Assembly (NCBI GenBank): GCA_963650135.1
Contig: CAVJLG010000058.1
Span: 436-64,435, forward strand
DNA from: Barnesiella intestinihominis
Lineage (GTDB): Bacteria; Bacillota; Clostridia; Oscillospirales; Oscillospiraceae
Reading direction: 5' to 3'
Length of the DNA stretch: 64,000 nucleotides
The notes under the pieces are model-generated. The model saw only the letters and a list, made by a program, of their open reading frames with translations, was not told the origin of the DNA and did no database searches. Below, piece by piece: positions 2,580 through 10,902 of the stretch. How positions within the stretch are numbered: position 1 is the first letter of the stretch; each line of letters opens with the position of its first letter. The translations under genes were made by a program, and so were the position numbers.

Positions 2580-4382
2580 ATGCGAAAATCCATCCTTGCC
2601 ATCGTGCTTGCCGCCGCCATGTTGGCCTCTATGCTGGTGGGCTGCGGAAACAACGCCGCATCCTCTGCCGCCCCGGCTGCTTCCTCCGCTGCGGAAGAAA
2701 GTACCCCCTCCCAGGCTCCGGCCCCTGCCCCCGAGGACAGCACCCCTGCCGCTGAGCCCGAAGCCTCTGCCGCAGAAGAAAGCGTGGTAGAAGAAGCCCC
2801 CGTAGAGTACGCCACCATGGCTGAAAAATACGCCGCCATGAGCCACGACACCAACGAGGCCTACAAAGAGCTGGAGGATGGCGTTGGCACCGAAATCTCC
2901 TATCCCCTGGCCGACGGCGACACACTGACCATGTGGCGCGTGTTCTCCGCCTTTATCTGGAGCGGCCTGATGGAGTCCTATGCCGACATGCCCACCCTGC
3001 CCATCATTGAAGAGGCAACGGGCGTCAACATGAAGTTCATCGAGTGCTCTGATTCCGCCGCCTATGAGCAGTTCAACCTGACCATTGCCACCGGCGACTA
3101 TCCCGACCTGATGGCCATGGACTATTATTCCGGCGGCGTTACCGCTGCCTATGAGGATGATATCATCATCGACCTCACCGACCTGGTGGATGAGAACATG
3201 CCCAACTACAAGACCCTCATCGACACCATGGACGACTACACCAAAAAGAGCATCTACACCGACGACAACCGAATTCTGCGCATCTGGACGCTGGCCTCCA
3301 ATGTGGTATCCGAGCAGGGCCTGAGCTACCGCGCCGACTGGGCCCAGGAGTTCGGCATGGACGCACCGGTGACTGTAGACGACATGTTCGACTATCTCAC
3401 CGCTGTAAAGAACCAATATAACTGCACCTATCCCATCTTCATCGACAACTCCGCCACCCTGGAGGGCTTCACCGGCGCATTCGGCACCACCGGCATCAAC
3501 CTGGGCTGGACCGATCTTGGCATGATGATGGACGGCGATACCGTAGTTTCCTCTCTCACCGACGAGCATTTCCGGAACTACATTGAGGGCTTCCATAAGT
3601 TCTATGCCGCGGGCCTGATTAAGGACGATTTCTACTCCGAATCCTATGGCCCCGACTATATCAACAGCTATGTTTCCAACGACCAGTGCGCCGTTACCTC
3701 CATCCGCGGCGATAAGTTCACCACCATGACCGACGCCGCCATCTCCCCCACCTTCGACTTCGAGGCCATGGCGCCTCTGGTGGAAAACGAGGGCGACACC
3801 TATAAGTTCTGCATGAAAACCAGCCATACCGGCAACGGCAACATGTCCATCACCACCGGGTGTGAGAACCCCGAAATGGCTGCAAAGTTTATGAACTGGT
3901 TCTACACCTATGACGGCTATATGGTCACCAACTATGGCGAAGAGGGCGTTTGCTTCGAGTATGACGAAAACGGCGATCCCGTCTACACTGACTTCATTGT
4001 TCATAACCCCGACGGCTACAACGTGATGAACCTGCGGAACATGTACACCAATCCCGTGTTCAACAACTACACCAATGCCACCGCCGTCTTCTACACCTAT
4101 GACGAGGTGGAGCTCTCCGCCTTCGATATCTGGAACAACAACGGCACCGACGAATGCTCGCTGCCCACCCTGTCCCTGACCACCGATGAAAACGCGGAAT
4201 ACGCCAACATTGCCACCACCGTCTATACCTTTGCCACCGAGCAAATTCTCAAGTGGATGATCGGCGAGGCAGAGCTTACCGACGAGAGCTGGGATAGCTA
4301 TGTGCAGCAATGCGAATCTATGAATCTTTCCCGCTGCGTAGAGATCTACCAGGCCGTTTATGACCGGATGTACAAAGCATAG
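2580..4382 (+). CDS. ABC transporter extracellular solute-binding lipoprotein (large family-1 / carbohydrate type), orphan
   Basis: Signal peptide with lipobox MRKSILAIVLAAAMLASMLVGC. An Ala/Ser/Pro/Glu linker follows, then a domain of about 520 aa typical of large sugar SBPs. GGAG RBS present. Confidence 0.8.
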   Translation: MRKSILAIVLAAAMLASMLVGCGNNAASSAAPAASSAAEESTPSQAPAPAPEDSTPAAEPEASAAEESVVEEAPVEYATMAEKYAAMSHDTNEAYKELEDGVGTEISYPLADGDTLTMWRVFSAFIWSGLMESYADMPTLPIIEEATGVNMKFIECSDSAAYEQFNLTIATGDYPDLMAMDYYSGGVTAAYEDDIIIDLTDLVDENMPNYKTLIDTMDDYTKKSIYTDDNRILRIWTLASNVVSEQGLSYRADWAQEFGMDAPVTVDDMFDYLTAVKNQYNCTYPIFIDNSATLEGFTGAFGTTGINLGWTDLGMMMDGDTVVSSLTDEHFRNYIEGFHKFYAAGLIKDDFYSESYGPDYINSYVSNDQCAVTSIRGDKFTTMTDAAISPTFDFEAMAPLVENEGDTYKFCMKTSHTGNGNMSITTGCENPEMAAKFMNWFYTYDGYMVTNYGEEGVCFEYDENGDPVYTDFIVHNPDGYNVMNLRNMYTNPVFNNYTNATAVFYTYDEVELSAFDIWNNNGTDECSLPTLSLTTDENAEYANIATTVYTFATEQILKWMIGEAELTDESWDSYVQQCESMNLSRCVEIYQAVYDRMYKA

Positions 4383-4557: not shown

Positions 4558-5571
4558 ATGGCAAAGACCATCATTACCGCCGCTCTGACCGGCGCTGTAA
4601 CTCCCGCTGGTTATGACATCCCCGAGACTCCCGCTCAGATCGCCGAGTGCGCTTATGAGTGCTGGAAGGCTGGTGCTTCTGTTGTTCACCTGCATATGCG
4701 TGACGACGCTGGCGCTGGCGTTATGGATCCCGTAAAGTTCTACGAGACCATCAAGCTGATCCGTGCTCACAAGGACTGCGACGTTATCGTTAACTGCACC
4801 TCTTCCGGTGACAACCGTGTTTCCGATGACTCCCCCTACGGCAACGCTATGCGTATGCTGCACCACAAGAACGTCCCCGGCATTGAGATGGGCACCTTTG
4901 ATGCTTCCTCCTTCAACTGGGGCATCCCCGGCGGCGTTTTCCACAACTCCCCCAACATGCTGTCCACCCTGGGTACCCTGTACCTGGAGAAGGGCATTAA
5001 GCCCGAGTTCGAGATCTTCGACTTCGGCGCTCTGCGTGCTGTCGGCATCTATTGGAAGAAGGGCTTCGTAGCTGCTCCTCTGCACTTCCAGTTCTGCCTG
5101 GGCGTAGTTGGCGGCATGGACGCTACTCCCCACGATCTGCAGATCCTGCTCGACGAGATGCACAACCTGCAGGCTGCTGGCAAGCTGCCCGCTGAGTGCA
5201 CTTGGTCCGGCTTCGGCATCGGCAAGGGTCATCTGCCTGTTATGTTCTCCTGCATCGCTAACGGCGGCCATGTCCGTGTAGGCATGGAGGATAACGTTGT
5301 TTACGGCAAGGACAAGGACGGCAAGAAGATCCTGGCTACCAACCTGATGCTGGTTCAGCGCGCTGCTCGTGCCATCGAGGCATTCGGCAACGAGGTTGCT
5401 ACCCCCGCTGAGGCTCGTGAGATGCTCGGCCTGAAGCCCCTGGATCATGAGGCTGTTTGCGCTGCGCTCGACGCTGTTAAGGTTGAGGATCTGGAAGCTG
5501 CTAAGCAGGCTGTTGCTGACGAGTTCGGCGGCCCCTACTTCGCTGCTACTTCCATGGGCGGCAAGAAGTAA
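4558..5571 (+). CDS. Beta-keto acid cleavage enzyme family protein (BKACE / DUF849, 3-keto-5-aminohexanoate cleavage enzyme-like)
   Basis: N-terminus MAKTIITAALTGAVTPAGYDIPETPAQIAECAYECWKAGASVVHLHMRDD is the family hallmark. At 337 aa it is longer than the usual length of about 270-310 aa. Confidence 0.8.
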   Translation: MAKTIITAALTGAVTPAGYDIPETPAQIAECAYECWKAGASVVHLHMRDDAGAGVMDPVKFYETIKLIRAHKDCDVIVNCTSSGDNRVSDDSPYGNAMRMLHHKNVPGIEMGTFDASSFNWGIPGGVFHNSPNMLSTLGTLYLEKGIKPEFEIFDFGALRAVGIYWKKGFVAAPLHFQFCLGVVGGMDATPHDLQILLDEMHNLQAAGKLPAECTWSGFGIGKGHLPVMFSCIANGGHVRVGMEDNVVYGKDKDGKKILATNLMLVQRAARAIEAFGNEVATPAEAREMLGLKPLDHEAVCAALDAVKVEDLEAAKQAVADEFGGPYFAATSMGGKK

Positions 5572-6671: not shown

Positions 6672-7601
6672 TTACTTGCACTTCTCCAGCAGCTCTTCCC
6701 ATTTCCGGTCCACATACTCCTGGGCATTCTCCAGCATCCACTCGTTGCCCTTCTTGAAGCAGTGCTTGAACCGTCCCTGGAGCCGCATATAGTCCTCGAT
6801 GGGCTTCTTTTTCTTGGGCTCGTAGGTCAGCCGCCATTCGCCGTTTTCCACCTCGTACATGGGCCACAGGCAGGTATCCACCGCCAACTGACAGATGGTG
6901 GGCAGCAGCGCCGTGTCATACTGCCAACCTCTGGGACAGGGAGACAACACATTCAGGAAGCAGGGGCCCTGGGTGTAAATGGCCTTCTTCGCCTTCTCGT
7001 GGAGGTCCCGGAAGTTACCGATGAACGTGGACTGGGCCACATAGGGGATGCCATGGGCCACCATAATGGCAGTCAAATCCTTCTTGTCCTGCTGCTTGCC
7101 CTGAATTTCCGTGCCAACAGGGGCCGTGGTAGCGTCCGCAAAGCGCGGGGTGGAGGACGAACGCTGAATGCCGGTGTTCATATATGCCTCGTTGTCGTAG
7201 CAGACATACACCATGTCATGTCCGCGCTCCATGGCGCCAGACAGGGACTGGAAACCGATGTCATAGGTGCCGCCGTCGCCGCCAAAGGTGATGAATTTGA
7301 AGTTTTCCTGGACTTTTCCCTGCTTTTTCAGCGCCTTATAACATGCCTCCACGCCGGAGCAGGTGGCAGCGGCGTTCTCAAAGGCGGAATGTACATAGCT
7401 CTCGGTCCAGGAGGTGTAGGGATACATAAAGGAGGAAACCTCCAGGCAGCCGGTGGCGTTGGTAATCACCGCACGGTCACCGGGCTCCAGGGCGCGCATC
7501 ACGGCACGGCAGGTAATACCCGCACCGCAGCCTGCGCACAGCCGATGGCCGCCCACAAAACGTTCCGGTTTTTCAAGCTCTTTCTTAAACTGATATGCCA
7601 T
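6672..7601 (-). CDS. 2-oxoacid:ferredoxin oxidoreductase, beta (TPP-binding) subunit (PorB/VorB type)
   Basis: ERFVGGHRLCAGCGAGI...FGGDGGTYDIGFQSLSGAMERGHDMVYVCYDNEAYMNTGIQRS is the TPP/Fe-S motif block. Confidence 0.9.
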   Translation of the reverse strand: MAYQFKKELEKPERFVGGHRLCAGCGAGITCRAVMRALEPGDRAVITNATGCLEVSSFMYPYTSWTESYVHSAFENAAATCSGVEACYKALKKQGKVQENFKFITFGGDGGTYDIGFQSLSGAMERGHDMVYVCYDNEAYMNTGIQRSSSTPRFADATTAPVGTEIQGKQQDKKDLTAIMVAHGIPYVAQSTFIGNFRDLHEKAKKAIYTQGPCFLNVLSPCPRGWQYDTALLPTICQLAVDTCLWPMYEVENGEWRLTYEPKKKKPIEDYMRLQGRFKHCFKKGNEWMLENAQEYVDRKWEELLEKCK

Positions 7602-7604
7602 GAT

Positions 7605-8783
7605 TTATTCCCCCCTAACGCCCATATGGGTGTATACTTCGCCAACCTCGCCGGTTTCGGCAATGTGCTCCAGCCGCTGATACAGAGCCGCAATGTCGCC
7701 GGTGGACACGTCTCTGCCGCCCAAGCCATAGACCACATTGATGAGCTTGGGTCGATGCTCCAGATCATACAGTGCACTGCGGGTTTCCGCAAAAATCGGG
7801 CCGCCGCAAGCGCTAAAGCCCTCGGACTTGTCCATGACTGCCACGGCCTTGCAATGAGACAGGGCCTGTGCCAGTTCCTCTGCCGGGAACGGACGGAATA
7901 CGCGAAGCTTAATGAGGCCCACCTTTTTGCCCTGGGCCCGGAGCTGATCCACTGTGGCCTTGGCAGTACCGGCAGTGGAGCCAATGAGCACCAGCGCTTC
8001 CTCCGCGTCCTCCATGCAGTATTCCTCGAAGAAGCCATAGGTTCTGCCAAACTGCTCGCCAAAGCGCTTGCCCTGCTCGAGAATGGCCTGCTTTGCGTCC
8101 TTCATGGCCTCAGCTTCCTGCTTTTTATGCTCGAAATAGTAATGGGTCACGTCATAGGGGCCCACCGCCATCGTCTCTCCGGCCTTCAAAAGGGAATGCT
8201 CGGGATGATATTCGCCCACAAAGCCCTTGACCTCGCCATCCTCCAGGAGCTCAATGTTCTCCACTGCGTGGGATGTGATAAAGCCGTCCATGCAGATCAT
8301 CACCGGCAGCCGAACCGCCTCGGCAATGGGGAAGGCCTGGACGTAGTTGTCGTAGACCTCCTGGTTGTTCTCCGCATAAATCTGAATCCAGCCCGCATCC
8401 CGTGCGCCCATGGCGTCGGAATGGTCGTTGTTGATGTTGATGGGGCCGGACAGCGCACGGGTAGAAACCGCCAGAACAATGGGAAGGCGGCTGGACGCTG
8501 CCACATATAAAAGCTCATACATCAGTGCCAGGCCGCAGGAGGAGGTAGCGCTGATGGCCCGTCCGCCAGCCGCTGCGGCGCCGATGCAAACAGACATGGA
8601 GCTGTGCTCGGATTCCACCGTTACCAGCTCGGTATGTACCTTGCCGTCCGCCACATACTGGGCAAAATACTGGGGGATCTCCGTGGAGGGAGTGATGGGA
8701 AATGCGCCCATTACGTCCGGGTCAATCTGCCGCATGGCCACGGCTACCGCTTCGTTGCCGGAAAGTCTGTCGAGATGTGCCAT
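7605..8783 (-). CDS. 2-oxoacid:ferredoxin oxidoreductase, alpha subunit (PorA/VorA type)
   Basis: LSGNEAVAVAMRQIDPDVMGAFPITPSTEIPQYF...ESEHSSMSVCIGAAAAGGR. Confidence 0.9.
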   Translation of the reverse strand: MAHLDRLSGNEAVAVAMRQIDPDVMGAFPITPSTEIPQYFAQYVADGKVHTELVTVESEHSSMSVCIGAAAAGGRAISATSSCGLALMYELLYVAASSRLPIVLAVSTRALSGPININNDHSDAMGARDAGWIQIYAENNQEVYDNYVQAFPIAEAVRLPVMICMDGFITSHAVENIELLEDGEVKGFVGEYHPEHSLLKAGETMAVGPYDVTHYYFEHKKQEAEAMKDAKQAILEQGKRFGEQFGRTYGFFEEYCMEDAEEALVLIGSTAGTAKATVDQLRAQGKKVGLIKLRVFRPFPAEELAQALSHCKAVAVMDKSEGFSACGGPIFAETRSALYDLEHRPKLINVVYGLGGRDVSTGDIAALYQRLEHIAETGEVGEVYTHMGVRGE

Positions 8784-9085
8784 TATTCTCCCTCCTCCTG
8801 AAATTGAATCGCGTCAAAGGGACATGCGGTGATGCAGATGCCGCAGCCCTTACAGTGCTGCAAATCAAACTCGCCGCGCCGCCCGTCCTTCACCGGAATG
8901 GCACTGTCGGGACAGTAGGGCACGCACAGAAGACATTGCTTACATTTATCCGCCAGGAATACAGGGGTCTGGGTGCGCCAATCCCCGGTGTTAAATGCCA
9001 GCGACGTGGCAGGCTCATAGATTTCTCCGCCCGGGGTCAGCTGCTGCCAGGGGGAATTTTCGTGAATATCCTTTGCGTAAATCAT
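8783..9085 (-). CDS. 2-oxoacid:ferredoxin oxidoreductase, delta subunit (2x[4Fe-4S] ferredoxin)
   Basis: Two CxxCxxCxxxCP motifs: CKQCLLCVPYCP and CKGCGICITACP. Shares 1 nt with the alpha gene and overlaps the gamma gene by 4 nt. Confidence 0.9.
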   Translation of the reverse strand: MIYAKDIHENSPWQQLTPGGEIYEPATSLAFNTGDWRTQTPVFLADKCKQCLLCVPYCPDSAIPVKDGRRGEFDLQHCKGCGICITACPFDAIQFQEEGE

Positions 9086-9663
9086 CCCTGTACCTCCTCC
9101 ATGGAAATGCTCAAAACCTTCATATTGCCCGCGATGACCTGGGGCTTGGTGGCAAATTTATGGTGGAAGGACTCCTCCATATCCGCCTTAAACTTCTCCG
9201 GCTCTACCACGCCGCTGACCTTTACCGTGGCTGCCAGCATAGGGGTATTGGGGAATACCTTGCCCAGGATCTCTTTGGAAATTCCGTTGGCATCGATGGT
9301 GCAGACCCGGCCCGCATAGCCGCCCAGCAGCGGACGAATTTCCTCCGGGGTCTTCTTTGTATTGATGATAATCGCGCCGGATTCCTTCAGTCCTGCGGTT
9401 ACGTCCACGCAGTCGATAAGGCCCTCGTCAACCACCACCACATAGTCCGGCTCATAGATATTGGAATGAATGCTGCACCGCTGGGTGCTGATTCGGTTAT
9501 AGGCTGTGATGGGGGCGCCGCTGCGCTCCGGGCCGTATTCCGGGAAGCCCTGCACATATTTCCCCGACGAAAACGCCGCATCCGCCAGCAGCAGACATGC
9601 GGTTTTTGCGCCCTGTCCGCCGCGGCCATGCCAGCGAATCTCCACCATATCCTGATTGTTCAC
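9082..9663 (-). CDS. 2-oxoacid:ferredoxin oxidoreductase, gamma subunit
   Basis: EIRWHGRGGQGAKTACLLLADAAF. The start is set at GTG 9663, which has GGGGAGG 7 nt upstream. The alternative ATG is at 9648. The track start at 9756 would run through the leader terminator. Confidence 0.85.
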   Translation of the reverse strand: MNNQDMVEIRWHGRGGQGAKTACLLLADAAFSSGKYVQGFPEYGPERSGAPITAYNRISTQRCSIHSNIYEPDYVVVVDEGLIDCVDVTAGLKESGAIIINTKKTPEEIRPLLGGYAGRVCTIDANGISKEILGKVFPNTPMLAATVKVSGVVEPEKFKADMEESFHHKFATKPQVIAGNMKVLSISMEEVQG

Positions 9664-9701: not shown

Positions 9702-9953
9702 AAAAAGCGGCCTCGTCCGTAAAGGGACGAAAGCCGCAAACGCTTCGTATAACCACCCGTTACTGCATACCAACATATGCATCCCCGGATAACGGCAGGG
9801 TACCGGCAGCGCCTACTACGATCTTTTGGGCTGCTGTTCAGAAGTGATGTTCAGGTCGCCGCTACTATCACCGGGCTCTCACCGCCCCCGGCTCGCTTTG
9901 GAGTTTGCCTGCGTCCTACTGTCTTCGTCATTACATTTACAGTGTTTTGAACT
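9702..9953 (-). promoter_or_regulatory. T-box riboswitch leader, predicted Ile (AUC) specifier, with terminator/antiterminator
   Basis: Read in RNA sense. Stem I has a K-turn-like AUGACGAAG, AGUA in the specifier loop, the AG bay AGCGAG, the distal loop GGUGAGAG and GAUAGUAGC. The specifier is AAC-AUC-A before CUUC. The T-box is GGG-UGGUUAU-ACGAAG...CUUUCGU-CCC. It competes with the terminator GCGGCUUUCGUCC/GGACGAGGCCGC + U5 (9702-9737). Confidence 0.75.
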
Positions 9954-9960
9954 TGGGTCT

Positions 9961-9989
9961 ATCATAGTATTCCCGGGGGAATTTGTCAA
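9961..9989 (-). promoter_or_regulatory. Sigma-A promoter of the T-box/oxidoreductase operon
   Basis: On the minus strand: TTGACA (9989-9984), 17-nt spacer, TATGAT (9966-9961). Confidence 0.65.
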
Positions 9990-10192
9990 TATGCAATTCC
10001 CGTTTCACGCAACAACCTTTTTGCCGTTTTTTTCGCGGTTTTTGTACAAGTTGCGCAATCATCTGTGCATGTCCGGTGTACACAAGTGTTCCCTTGGCGC
10101 ATCAGATGAATATCTTTCATGCGTCTCCGTCATTGCAAGTTCTCCGTCTTTTGATCTGCAAAAATAATTTTGCATTTTTCTCACAAAACCCC

Positions 10193-10221
10193 TTGACAGA
10201 TTTTCGTTTCTGTTGTATATT
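10193..10221 (+). promoter_or_regulatory. Sigma-A promoter of the orphan non-coding transcript
   Basis: TTGACA (10193-10198), 17-nt spacer, TATATT (10216-10221). The palindrome TGCAAAA-ATAA-TTTTGCA lies at 10157-10174, just upstream. Confidence 0.6.
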
Positions 10222-10406
10222 GTAGACACAAAGAAGAAAGGAATGATTCCAATGAAGTAACCTAGCACGACAGTTCAGCGAGCGACTCTGTCGGAAGATT
10301 TGCAGGTTTGATATGTGTAATCTTGCATCATTTATTTTCAGATGATTGAAACCCCGCCTAATGTTCTTATCCGGGATTTCCGGTTGAAAATAGATATTCC
10401 AACACT

Positions 10407-10720
10407 GGGAGGTACACTCCGATGTACTAACTGTACTGATCGAAGTTTTGTCCGATCCACCCACCGATGGAGGCAAGGATCCCATGCACAGCTGATATTT
10501 CTTCAGTTCGTCAAATTCGAAATTTTATGACAAGTCCCCGCATGGCAATCGCCGTCCGGGTAATCAAATTGGAGGTAAATTCCCATGTACTGATCCGTCA
10601 ATCGTCCAGACGCCATTTTGTTGGAGGCTCGGGTCCCATGAAAAACTAATGCGGAGATTCCGCACATTTGATCGAATTTTGATCCACAATATTCTGGAGG
10701 ACAGTCCCGTGAACAGATGA
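10407..10720 (+). repeat. Five dispersed modules (U)GGAGG-N5-6-UCC(C)-AUG/GUG followed by 1-2 codons and a stop
   Basis: The five modules are:
- 10407-10430: GGGAGGuacacUCCgAUG UAC UAA.
- 10469-10495: GGAGGcaaggaUCCCAUG CAC AGC UGA.
- 10571-10593: GGAGGuaaauUCCCAUG UAC UGA.
- 10623-10649: GGAGGcucgggUCCCAUG AAA AAC UAA.
- 10696-10720: GGAGGacagUCCCGUG AAC AGA UGA. Confidence 0.7.
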
Positions 10721-10806
10721 TCTGGCAATGACGCCACAGTACCTTTGTAAACAATAATTTCATATGAAAGGATGAGAGGGGTATGAGTGAACCCACTCAG
10801 CAGTAG

Positions 10807-10850
10807 CTGCCGTGTATGGTGAAGAAGGATACCATGCACGGCAGTTTTTT
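10807..10850 (+). terminator. Strong rho-independent terminator of the orphan transcript
   Basis: 14-bp stem ctgccgtgtatggt / accatgcacggcag, a 10-nt loop, then T6. Confidence 0.85.
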
Positions 10851-10864
10851 GCGCCCATTTCATC

Positions 10865-10902
10865 AAAAAGGACCCGGCACAGCTTCGTGCCAGGTCCTTT
10901 TC
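10865..10902. terminator. Terminator of the glycogen/thpR operon (minus strand; also U-rich on the plus strand)
   Basis: Stem aggacccggcac / gtgccaggtcct with one mismatch, flanked by A5 on the left and TTTTC on the right. Confidence 0.7.

Follow-up and report, generated by a model that had tools for sequence, protein, structure and literature searches.

T-box leaders of the isoleucine type (Rfam family RF00230) act on ileS genes at the level of transcription: a Stem I with an AGUA/GAA S-turn, an AG bay and a distal loop is followed by Stem II, a further helix, Stem III, a UGGN bulge and a terminator. T-boxes also control biosynthetic operons of the ilv-leu type, such as that of Bacillus subtilis with its leucine specifier, and couple them to the charging of the end-product tRNA. 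Labelling and enzyme work since the 1960s has shown that isoleucine can be made by reductive carboxylation, with propionate or 2-methylbutyrate as the starting acid, and the ferredoxin-dependent carboxylation of propionyl-CoA to 2-ketobutyrate (2-oxobutyrate) is a recognised route (Buchanan, 1969; Eikmanns, 1983; Monticello, 1984; all as cited in PMC7476758). The passage of that article on the 2-ketobutyrate route places the activity in anaerobes including clostridia, for making isoleucine from propionate; it cites biochemical studies only and names no gene, and no gene for the reductive carboxylation was assigned in the literature searched. Here we describe an isoleucine-specific T-box upstream of a four-subunit 2-oxoacid:ferredoxin oxidoreductase (OFOR) operon in a 64,000-nucleotide stretch, hereafter the window, of an assembly filed under Barnesiella intestinihominis with an Oscillospiraceae lineage (GCA_963650135.1, contig CAVJLG010000058.1, positions 436 to 64,435). 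The enzyme belongs to a subfamily that likely serves as a starvation-induced maker of an isoleucine precursor. No report linking a T-box to a 2-oxoacid:ferredoxin oxidoreductase was found in the literature searched, with a mention in Vitreschak et al. (2008) or RegPrecise staying possible. The RNA mechanism is a standard one, as is the enzyme family; what is new is the regulon member and the functional hypothesis for an enzyme clade.

The leader occupies positions 9720..9940 of the minus strand and shares with the ileS leaders all elements named above, together with the AUC specifier and the bulge sequence UGGU; it differs from them in that it controls a ferredoxin-dependent 2-oxoacid oxidoreductase and not a synthetase. 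It possesses Stem II and the following helix, unlike glyQS of B. subtilis, and diverges from the Rfam consensus T-box sequence (GGGUGGUUAUACGAAG compared to GGGUGGUACCGCGag). An Rfam scan of the entire 64-kb window at the curated threshold gave no match, because the gathering score of RF00230 in Rfam 15 is as high as 93 and the leader reaches 77.6 bits. When below-threshold matches were recovered by means of an E-value threshold, the leader aligned with the full length of the model (positions 1-219, E 5e-17), and the covariance-model match that the earlier note had anticipated is thus significant, though under the gathering score. With R1, a covariance model built from orthologous leaders plus the window leader itself, the score is 217 bits.

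The individual elements lie where the earlier note had placed them. A sigma-70-type promoter, TTGACA-17-TATGAT, was found by a consensus scan at 9961..9989 (minus strand) with 11 of 12 consensus matches, and TATAAT-like boxes occupy the same position relative to Stem I in orthologous leaders. Stem I spans 9836..9933 (minus strand) and comprises the GA/K-turn region, specifier loop, AG bay and distal loop: its 5' side carries AAUGACGAAG and AGUA, the AG bay AGCGAG is at 9897-9892, the distal loop GGCGGUGAGAG at 9886-9876, and the 3' side of the specifier loop reads GAA-C-AUC-A-CUUC, with the specifier codon AUC (isoleucine) at plus-strand positions 9846-9848 followed by the conserved purine A9845. 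The antiterminator GGG-UGGUUAU-ACGAAG...CUUUCGU-CCC extends over 9724..9758 (minus strand); the UGGU (9755-9752) of its 7-nt bulge UGGUUAU is complementary to a tRNA 3' end of A73-C-C-A. The intrinsic terminator, GCGGCUUUCGUCC / GGACGAGGCCGC plus U5, lies at 9702..9737 (minus strand), and a terminator scan put its hairpin and U-run at 9732..9711 (minus strand). Since the segment CUUUCGUCC is common to antiterminator and terminator, the two helices are mutually exclusive. The resulting mechanism would be the familiar one: transcription would start at the TTGACA-17-TATGAT promoter and Stem I would bind the tRNA-Ile anticodon through the AUC specifier; with uncharged tRNA, the free A73-CCA end would pair with UGGU and stabilise the antiterminator, so that polymerase reads into the gamma-delta-alpha-beta operon, while with charged tRNA the terminator (9737-9702) would form and stop transcription. 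The leader is almost certainly a canonical transcription-attenuating T-box specific for tRNA-Ile(GAU).

Conservation argues in the same direction. A search with the alpha subunit, limited to one genome per species, yielded 80 loci at 70-98% identity from Oscillospiraceae, Agathobaculum, Butyricicoccus, Lachnospiraceae, Evtepia, Senimuribacter, Syntrophomonadaceae, Peptococcaceae and Desulfitobacteriaceae, each of them with the gamma gene directly upstream of alpha. The leader is present at 68 of these loci and absent at eight; the remaining four are truncated where the contig stops. Among 60 distinct leaders that were aligned, GAA, AUC and GGUGG do not vary, and AGUA, GAA-C-AUC-A, AGCGAG and GGCGGUGAGAG are conserved. 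The structure that RNAalifold derives from this alignment includes the base and distal helices of Stem I, Stem II with the helix behind it, Stem III and the terminator, and compensatory changes occur in 21 of its 38 pairs; the base helix and distal helix of Stem I covary, as do five of the nine terminator pairs. The antiterminator was tested as a named structure: 86.8% of its cells are paired, compared to 50-61% when the partners are slid, and its outer G-C pair is replaced by A-U in 15 leaders. Judged by these features, the RNA is a genuine, functional-looking, isoleucine-specific transcriptional T-box. In one subclade that lost the T-box (L047, L074 and L090), a TTGACA / TATAAT-like promoter lies upstream of gamma, together with a conserved stretch that contains the near-palindrome UUGUCUGACAAGU; this stretch may be a protein operator that took the place of the riboswitch.

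The specifier was read as the triplet that precedes the conserved purine beside the Stem I base helix, a rule also given by TBDB (PMC7778990). In the genome that holds the window (3.0 Mb, 55% G+C, 136 contigs), the rule returns the cognate codon for the leaders of valS (GUC), ilvB (CUC), glyS (GGC), leuA (CUG), trpB and trpE (UGG), pheS (UUC), tyrS (UAC), thrS (ACC), alaS (GCC) and cysE (UGC). All 66 orthologous leaders whose specifier region is on the contig read GAA-N-AUC, the AUC being followed by A in 62 and by C in four, and the base N preceding it may be A, C, G or U. The isoleucine specifier of the earlier note is thereby borne out. GAA-CAU, a histidine register, could be read from the window sequence alone, but the base with which CAU would begin varies among the orthologues while AUC is constant, and this frame was rejected. 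Moreover, tRNA-His carries C73, and the UGGU bulge complements A73 and not C73. As to a decayed, non-functional T-box, for which the score under the Rfam gathering cut-off might speak, the strong covariation and the conservation across several bacterial families stand against it; a shifted frame or a decayed leader is hardly credible. A tRNA-Ile(GAU) gene was found neither in the draft assembly of the window genome, in which 36 tRNAs were found, nor in metagenome-assembled genomes of the same genus, where a BLAST probe with E. coli ileT matched tRNA-Val only. The complete genome G009, which belongs to the same order, has a tRNA-Ile(GAU) that ends in ...GAGCCC-A-CCA and hence has the discriminator A73, with which the UGGU bulge is consistent. 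AUC and UGGU would thus match the anticodon GAU and the A73 of this tRNA.

The operon downstream of the leader encodes the four subunits on the minus strand in the order gamma, delta, alpha, beta. Gamma (9082..9663, 193 amino acids) begins with a GTG at 9663 behind the ribosome-binding site GGGGAGG (9677-9671), and homologues align from its residue 1; it scores 207 bits with TIGR02175 PorC_KorC (cut-off 81). Delta (8783..9085, 100 amino acids) contains Fer4 domains with two [4Fe-4S] motifs and scores 95 bits with TIGR02179 PorD_KorD (cut-off 60). Alpha (7605..8783, 392 amino acids) matches best the model PorA_Arch (471 bits, cut-off 550) and chain 9BT4_B (E 2e-84), and beta (6672..7601, 309 amino acids), which binds thiamine pyrophosphate and has the GDG...N motif and the cluster cysteines, PorB (360 bits, cut-off 405) and 9BT4_C (E 4e-83). 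A terminator-like site was not found downstream of beta. The domains characteristic of the four-subunit Por/Vor group (POR_N, PFOR_II and TPP_enzyme_C) are present, as are the YPITP motif and the substrate arginine of alpha; conservation extends to T31, R109, beta N142 and the CxxC motif. Only the two subfamily models TIGR02175 and TIGR02179 exceed their cut-offs, and every substrate-specific model remains under its own. This holds for the Por equivalogs (PorA_Arch and PorB as above, PorC 187 versus 270, PorD 89 versus 120) as well as for the Vor models (the VorA-type PRK08366 334 versus 646, the Vor beta PRK11864 297 versus 405, the Vor delta PRK09623 70 versus 166).

The earlier note had called the enzyme "VOR-type", that is, a branched-chain oxidoreductase. 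The archaeal VOR (PRK08366 / PRK11864 / PRK09623) has the same four-subunit organisation and belongs to the same superfamily, but the window subunits score lower on its models: for alpha (471 versus 334 bits), beta (360 versus 297) and delta (89 versus 70) alike, the Por model outscores the Vor model. The closest solved structure is the four-subunit pyruvate:ferredoxin oxidoreductase (PFOR) 9BT4, followed by oxalate oxidoreductase, and the VOR-type label is not supported. Compared to 9BT4 and to the PFOR of Desulfovibrio africanus (1B0P / 7PLM), the window enzyme has the same gamma-delta-alpha-beta composition, and Thr31, Arg109 (D. africanus Arg114), beta Val55 (Ile843) and beta Asn142 (Asn996) are conserved. 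The window genome has one other alpha-like gene, a PFOR-type match on contig C11; in the order-wide survey, matches at this level of identity are single-chain PFORs of about 1,180-1,230 amino acids. On these matches, the window OFOR is POR-like, and the genome has a further candidate for pyruvate oxidation besides it.

Not every POR-like enzyme of this kind is associated with a T-box. Among 250 other genomes of the same order, only eight have an orthologue at 60-79% identity. A wider survey scored 398 other Clostridia genomes and found homologues at 52-72% identity in 72 of them (73 loci, all examined); neither covariance model R1 nor a motif scan detected a leader at any of these loci. Some of the T-box-free homologues are the sole OFOR candidate in genomes of 1.1-1.5 Mb, and for this reason they are presumed to be true PORs, probably with a housekeeping role. 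In a tree of alpha subunits, the T-box loci form one clade (SH-aLRT 98), which includes 69 rows with a T-box, nine without (about three losses) and four that were assigned to neither group, and most T-box-free homologues group apart from it in a clade of their own. The two clades can be told apart at ten alpha positions. The signature of the T-box clade is V94, N118, Y210 and M217; the window enzyme has the first three and F at position 217, where 63 of 69 clade members have M. The signature is also missing from 70 of the 73 T-box-free loci. T-boxes specific for valine or leucine were not seen on paralogous OFORs in the samples, and the 39-41% identical L100-L103 have no T-box. At one locus (L113, G412:C11, 60-8121), an OFOR with V94, N118, Y210 and I at 217 lacks a T-box; it adjoins a divergent sigma-54-dependent activator and lies about 2.3 kb downstream of a gene for a type-2 IleS-like synthetase (tRNA-synt_1 plus DUF5915).

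To relate the signature to the active site, the residues were mapped onto D. africanus PFOR by phmmer alignments and compared with the residues listed by Yan et al. (2016; PMC5020499), who name Ala219 as a pocket residue lining the space for the substrate's alkyl group. Alpha position 210 aligns with Ala219 and is Tyr in all 69 T-box-clade rows, whereas 65 of 66 T-box-free rows have Leu, Met or Phe; the window enzyme has Tyr, 9BT4 Phe, D. africanus PFOR Ala and the T-box-free relatives Leu. Position 118, three residues past the pocket residue Leu121 (window I115), is Asn in the T-box clade, His in the T-box-free clade, Trp in 9BT4 and Phe in D. africanus PFOR. Neither clade shows any variation in the carboxylate ligands Thr31 and Arg114 (window R109) or in the pocket residues Ile843 (beta V55) and Asn996 (beta N142), and at I115, beta V55 and beta N142 the window enzyme agrees with the T-box-free POR-like relatives. 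The pocket is remodelled, though only lightly, and is not obviously enlarged, and the enzymes of the T-box clade would form a distinct subfamily of POR-like four-subunit 2-oxoacid:ferredoxin oxidoreductases.

That the T-box is specific for isoleucine, is switched on when its tRNA is uncharged and is conserved across several families argues that the enzyme helps to make isoleucine. During isoleucine starvation, it would run reductively and combine an acyl-CoA, CO2 and reduced ferredoxin into an isoleucine-specific 2-oxoacid; such an anabolic role in the supply of an isoleucine precursor appears quite probable. The preferred substrate would be propionyl-CoA and the product 2-oxobutyrate, which acetohydroxyacid synthase (AHAS), ketol-acid reductoisomerase (KARI), dihydroxyacid dehydratase (DHAD) and IlvE, all encoded in the window genome, could convert to isoleucine, supplementing the genome's threonine dehydratase route. 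This would be the reaction of 2-ketobutyrate synthase, which in the part of PMC7476758 that covers it appears as an activity and as labelling results, and to which the window OFOR is assigned here only as a proposal. 2-Oxobutyrate is favoured because in one relative, L104 (G056:C1, 2-8592, minus strand), an AUC T-box of 111.9 bits drives ilvB-ilvN-ilvC-gamma-delta-alpha-beta. The ilv-leu type operons, including the window genome's ilvB and leuA with their T-boxes, encode canonical pathway enzymes, whereas the OFOR is usually not regarded as part of the pathway; in L104 the two kinds stand in one operon. Since AHAS consumes 2-oxobutyrate, this operon makes sense if the OFOR, which here carries V94, N118, Y210 and M217, supplies it. 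The POR-like family with few pocket changes also counts for 2-oxobutyrate, as do the AUC T-box directly before ilvA in G694 and the separate single-chain PFOR-type gene on C11 of the window genome, and IlvD is present in 49 of 50 host genomes. We would put 2-oxobutyrate as the product at not quite, or just about, an even chance, and the combination of an isoleucine T-box with a reductive OFOR supplying 2-oxobutyrate, as the best overall explanation, at an even one. Downstream of this L104 operon, on the same strand, are a gene similar to S-components of energy-coupling factor transporters and one for a group-B [FeFe] hydrogenase, which could supply reduced ferredoxin.

Several observations weigh against 2-oxobutyrate. 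The linkage of the OFOR to ilvBNC was seen at L104 alone, and in the tree the L104 enzyme has a long branch and falls outside the main T-box clade. IlvA is found in 38 of the 50 hosts and CimA in eight of those without IlvA, so that at least 46 already have one of the two and an additional source of 2-oxobutyrate looks redundant. The window genome, in which citramalate synthase was not found, has IlvA (C36), IlvC and IlvD (C84) and IlvE (C79); the enzyme would therefore be an addition to a complete isoleucine pathway and not a replacement, a pattern that fits propionyl-CoA and 2-methylbutyryl-CoA equally. Its ilvB is under a leucine T-box (CUC), so that isoleucine starvation alone would not induce the steps after 2-oxobutyrate. 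Tyr210 and Asn118 alone do not seem to translate into a substrate. Finally, salvage of 2-methylbutyrate would bypass more steps. This was the proposal of the earlier note: the enzyme would carboxylate 2-methylbutyryl-CoA to 3-methyl-2-oxopentanoate, which IlvE turns into isoleucine, a salvage of fermentation acids induced by the isoleucine T-box. Because IlvA or CimA is there already in the hosts, a route around the entire pathway would be more useful to them; it needs only IlvE downstream, which the window genome has, and a strictly isoleucine-specific T-box kept in 66 leaders suits it as well. The hosts produce butyrate and oxidise fatty acids, and organisms of this kind have broad-range CoA transferases; rumen and gut anaerobes reportedly incorporate 2-methylbutyrate into isoleucine, as Robinson and Allison in 1969 and Monticello et al. 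in 1984 are said to have observed. On the other hand, the subunits score higher with Por than with Vor models and a PFOR is the nearest solved structure; the T-box-free POR-like relatives share I115, beta V55 and beta N142, and residue 210 is larger (Tyr) instead of smaller. Clustering of the neighbours at the 80 loci revealed no recurrent acyl-CoA synthetase, kinase/phosphotransacylase (ptb-buk) or aminotransferase (ilvE), and for the salvage route the ilvBNC genes of the sole extended operon, L104, would be superfluous. We regard 2-methylbutyrate salvage as a serious rival, though a rather doubtful one: the isoleucine T-box speaks for the role in isoleucine synthesis claimed in the earlier note, and for the substrate propionyl-CoA, giving 2-oxobutyrate, fits the evidence at least as well.

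All readings other than these two are, taken together, improbable. One of them takes the best family and structure matches, which are to POR, and the carboxylate-binding and catalytic residues, which are identical to those of POR-like relatives, at face value: the enzyme would be an ordinary pyruvate:ferredoxin oxidoreductase or pyruvate synthase, and the isoleucine T-box would only tune the supply of pyruvate or acetyl-CoA for branched-chain amino acids. Yet valine and leucine need pyruvate as much or more, and all leaders are isoleucine-specific; the T-box clade has a fixed change at a pocket position, the window genome has a separate PFOR-type gene, and the homologues in the 72 sampled Clostridia genomes do without any T-box. 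This makes an ordinary pyruvate enzyme very unlikely. The earlier note had likewise denied a catabolic pyruvate oxidoreductase, and induction by isoleucine starvation together with the separate PFOR-type gene speaks for synthesis of isoleucine; 2-methylbutyryl-CoA, which the note coupled to this claim, is a candidate substrate. Conversely, since OFORs are reversible and IlvA is widespread among the hosts (38 of 50), the enzyme could act as an oxidative safety valve: isoleucine starvation frees threonine dehydratase from feedback inhibition, and the excess of toxic 2-oxobutyrate would be converted to propionyl-CoA. It would be counter-productive, however, to destroy a committed precursor during starvation; the L104 enzyme is co-transcribed with the genes for AHAS and KARI, which consume 2-oxobutyrate, and Syntrophomonas-type hosts lack IlvA and use CimA. 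A safety valve is therefore highly improbable.

A protein of about 300 amino acids might be part of the same system. Its gene adjoins the OFOR operon at 33 of the 80 loci and takes one of three places there: it is the fifth gene in Syntrophomonas-type loci, lies just upstream of the leader in Agathobaculum and, in three Lachnospiraceae loci from which the T-box has been lost, stands immediately before gamma. The protein was never seen beside the OFORs of the T-box-free clade and has no Pfam match. Copies are found at L059:6189-7106, L035:1727-2734 and L055:2009-2914, and the copy of the window genome (L095, C60:375-1319), with 53% identity, is on the 2-kb contig C60. In an AlphaFold model (mean pLDDT 73), the C-terminal half matches the folds of CbiT and precorrin-6Y methyltransferases (3E05, E 4e-14), while the glycine-rich S-adenosylmethionine motif is degenerate and reads SGESIA in the family consensus. 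It is tempting to combine the T-box, the V94/N118/Y210/M217 subfamily and this CbiT-fold partner, as a non-methyltransferase accessory factor, into the gene-orphan ferredoxin-dependent 2-oxobutyrate synthase system that leads from propionate to isoleucine; this is a tentative idea, and a rather unlikely one. If true, the T-box would act as a built-in functional label for the orphan synthase.

The T-box shows which amino acid's shortage switches a gene on, and in this case points to one enzyme clade in gut, rumen and syntrophic anaerobes, with several cultured Agathobaculum strains carrying the enzyme, among them A. desmolans ATCC 43058 (locus L043). Such genes are now annotated as pyruvate oxidoreductase, and a revised assignment would improve metabolic models of gut butyrate producers.

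In the window genome as a whole, 14 leaders were found with RF00230 at the E-value threshold, eight of which are under 93 bits; six of these eight precede pheS, trpE, tyrS, thrS, alaS or cysE. The current gathering cut-off of Rfam thus leaves the majority of this genome's T-boxes undetected. The window leader is its only isoleucine-type T-box, and none was detected at its ileS gene (C50:14258-17050). Elsewhere in the same host genomes, AUC leaders precede ileS and, in one genome (G694), directly ilvA, the usual source of 2-oxobutyrate; the AUC leader of ileS in G661 scores 167 bits under the model built from OFOR leaders. Two further T-boxes of the window genome deserve mention. A tryptophan (UGG) T-box at C86:12119-12358 (plus strand) lies upstream of a gene for a lipoprotein-type solute-binding protein of 382 amino acids, which is probably part of an uptake system for tryptophan or a precursor. 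The T-box at C68:6378-6599 (plus strand), upstream of a HisRS-like gene, has GAC (aspartate) as the triplet in front of the conserved purine and CAU (histidine) overlapping it, and its bulge is UGGC, which would pair with G73; it may be an aspartate or dual-specificity leader of a hisS-aspS-type operon.

Around the operon, no link was seen to the two genes downstream in the window: one at 4558-5571 (plus strand) for a beta-keto acid cleavage enzyme of the BKACE family (278 bits, under all equivalog cut-offs), and one at 2580-4382 (plus strand) for a lipoprotein-type extracellular solute-binding protein of 600 amino acids. Upstream of the leader promoter, about 900 bases (9990-10900) are without a convincing gene; the other strand of this stretch carries TTGACA-17-TATATT, which resembles a strong promoter, at 10193-10221 (plus strand).

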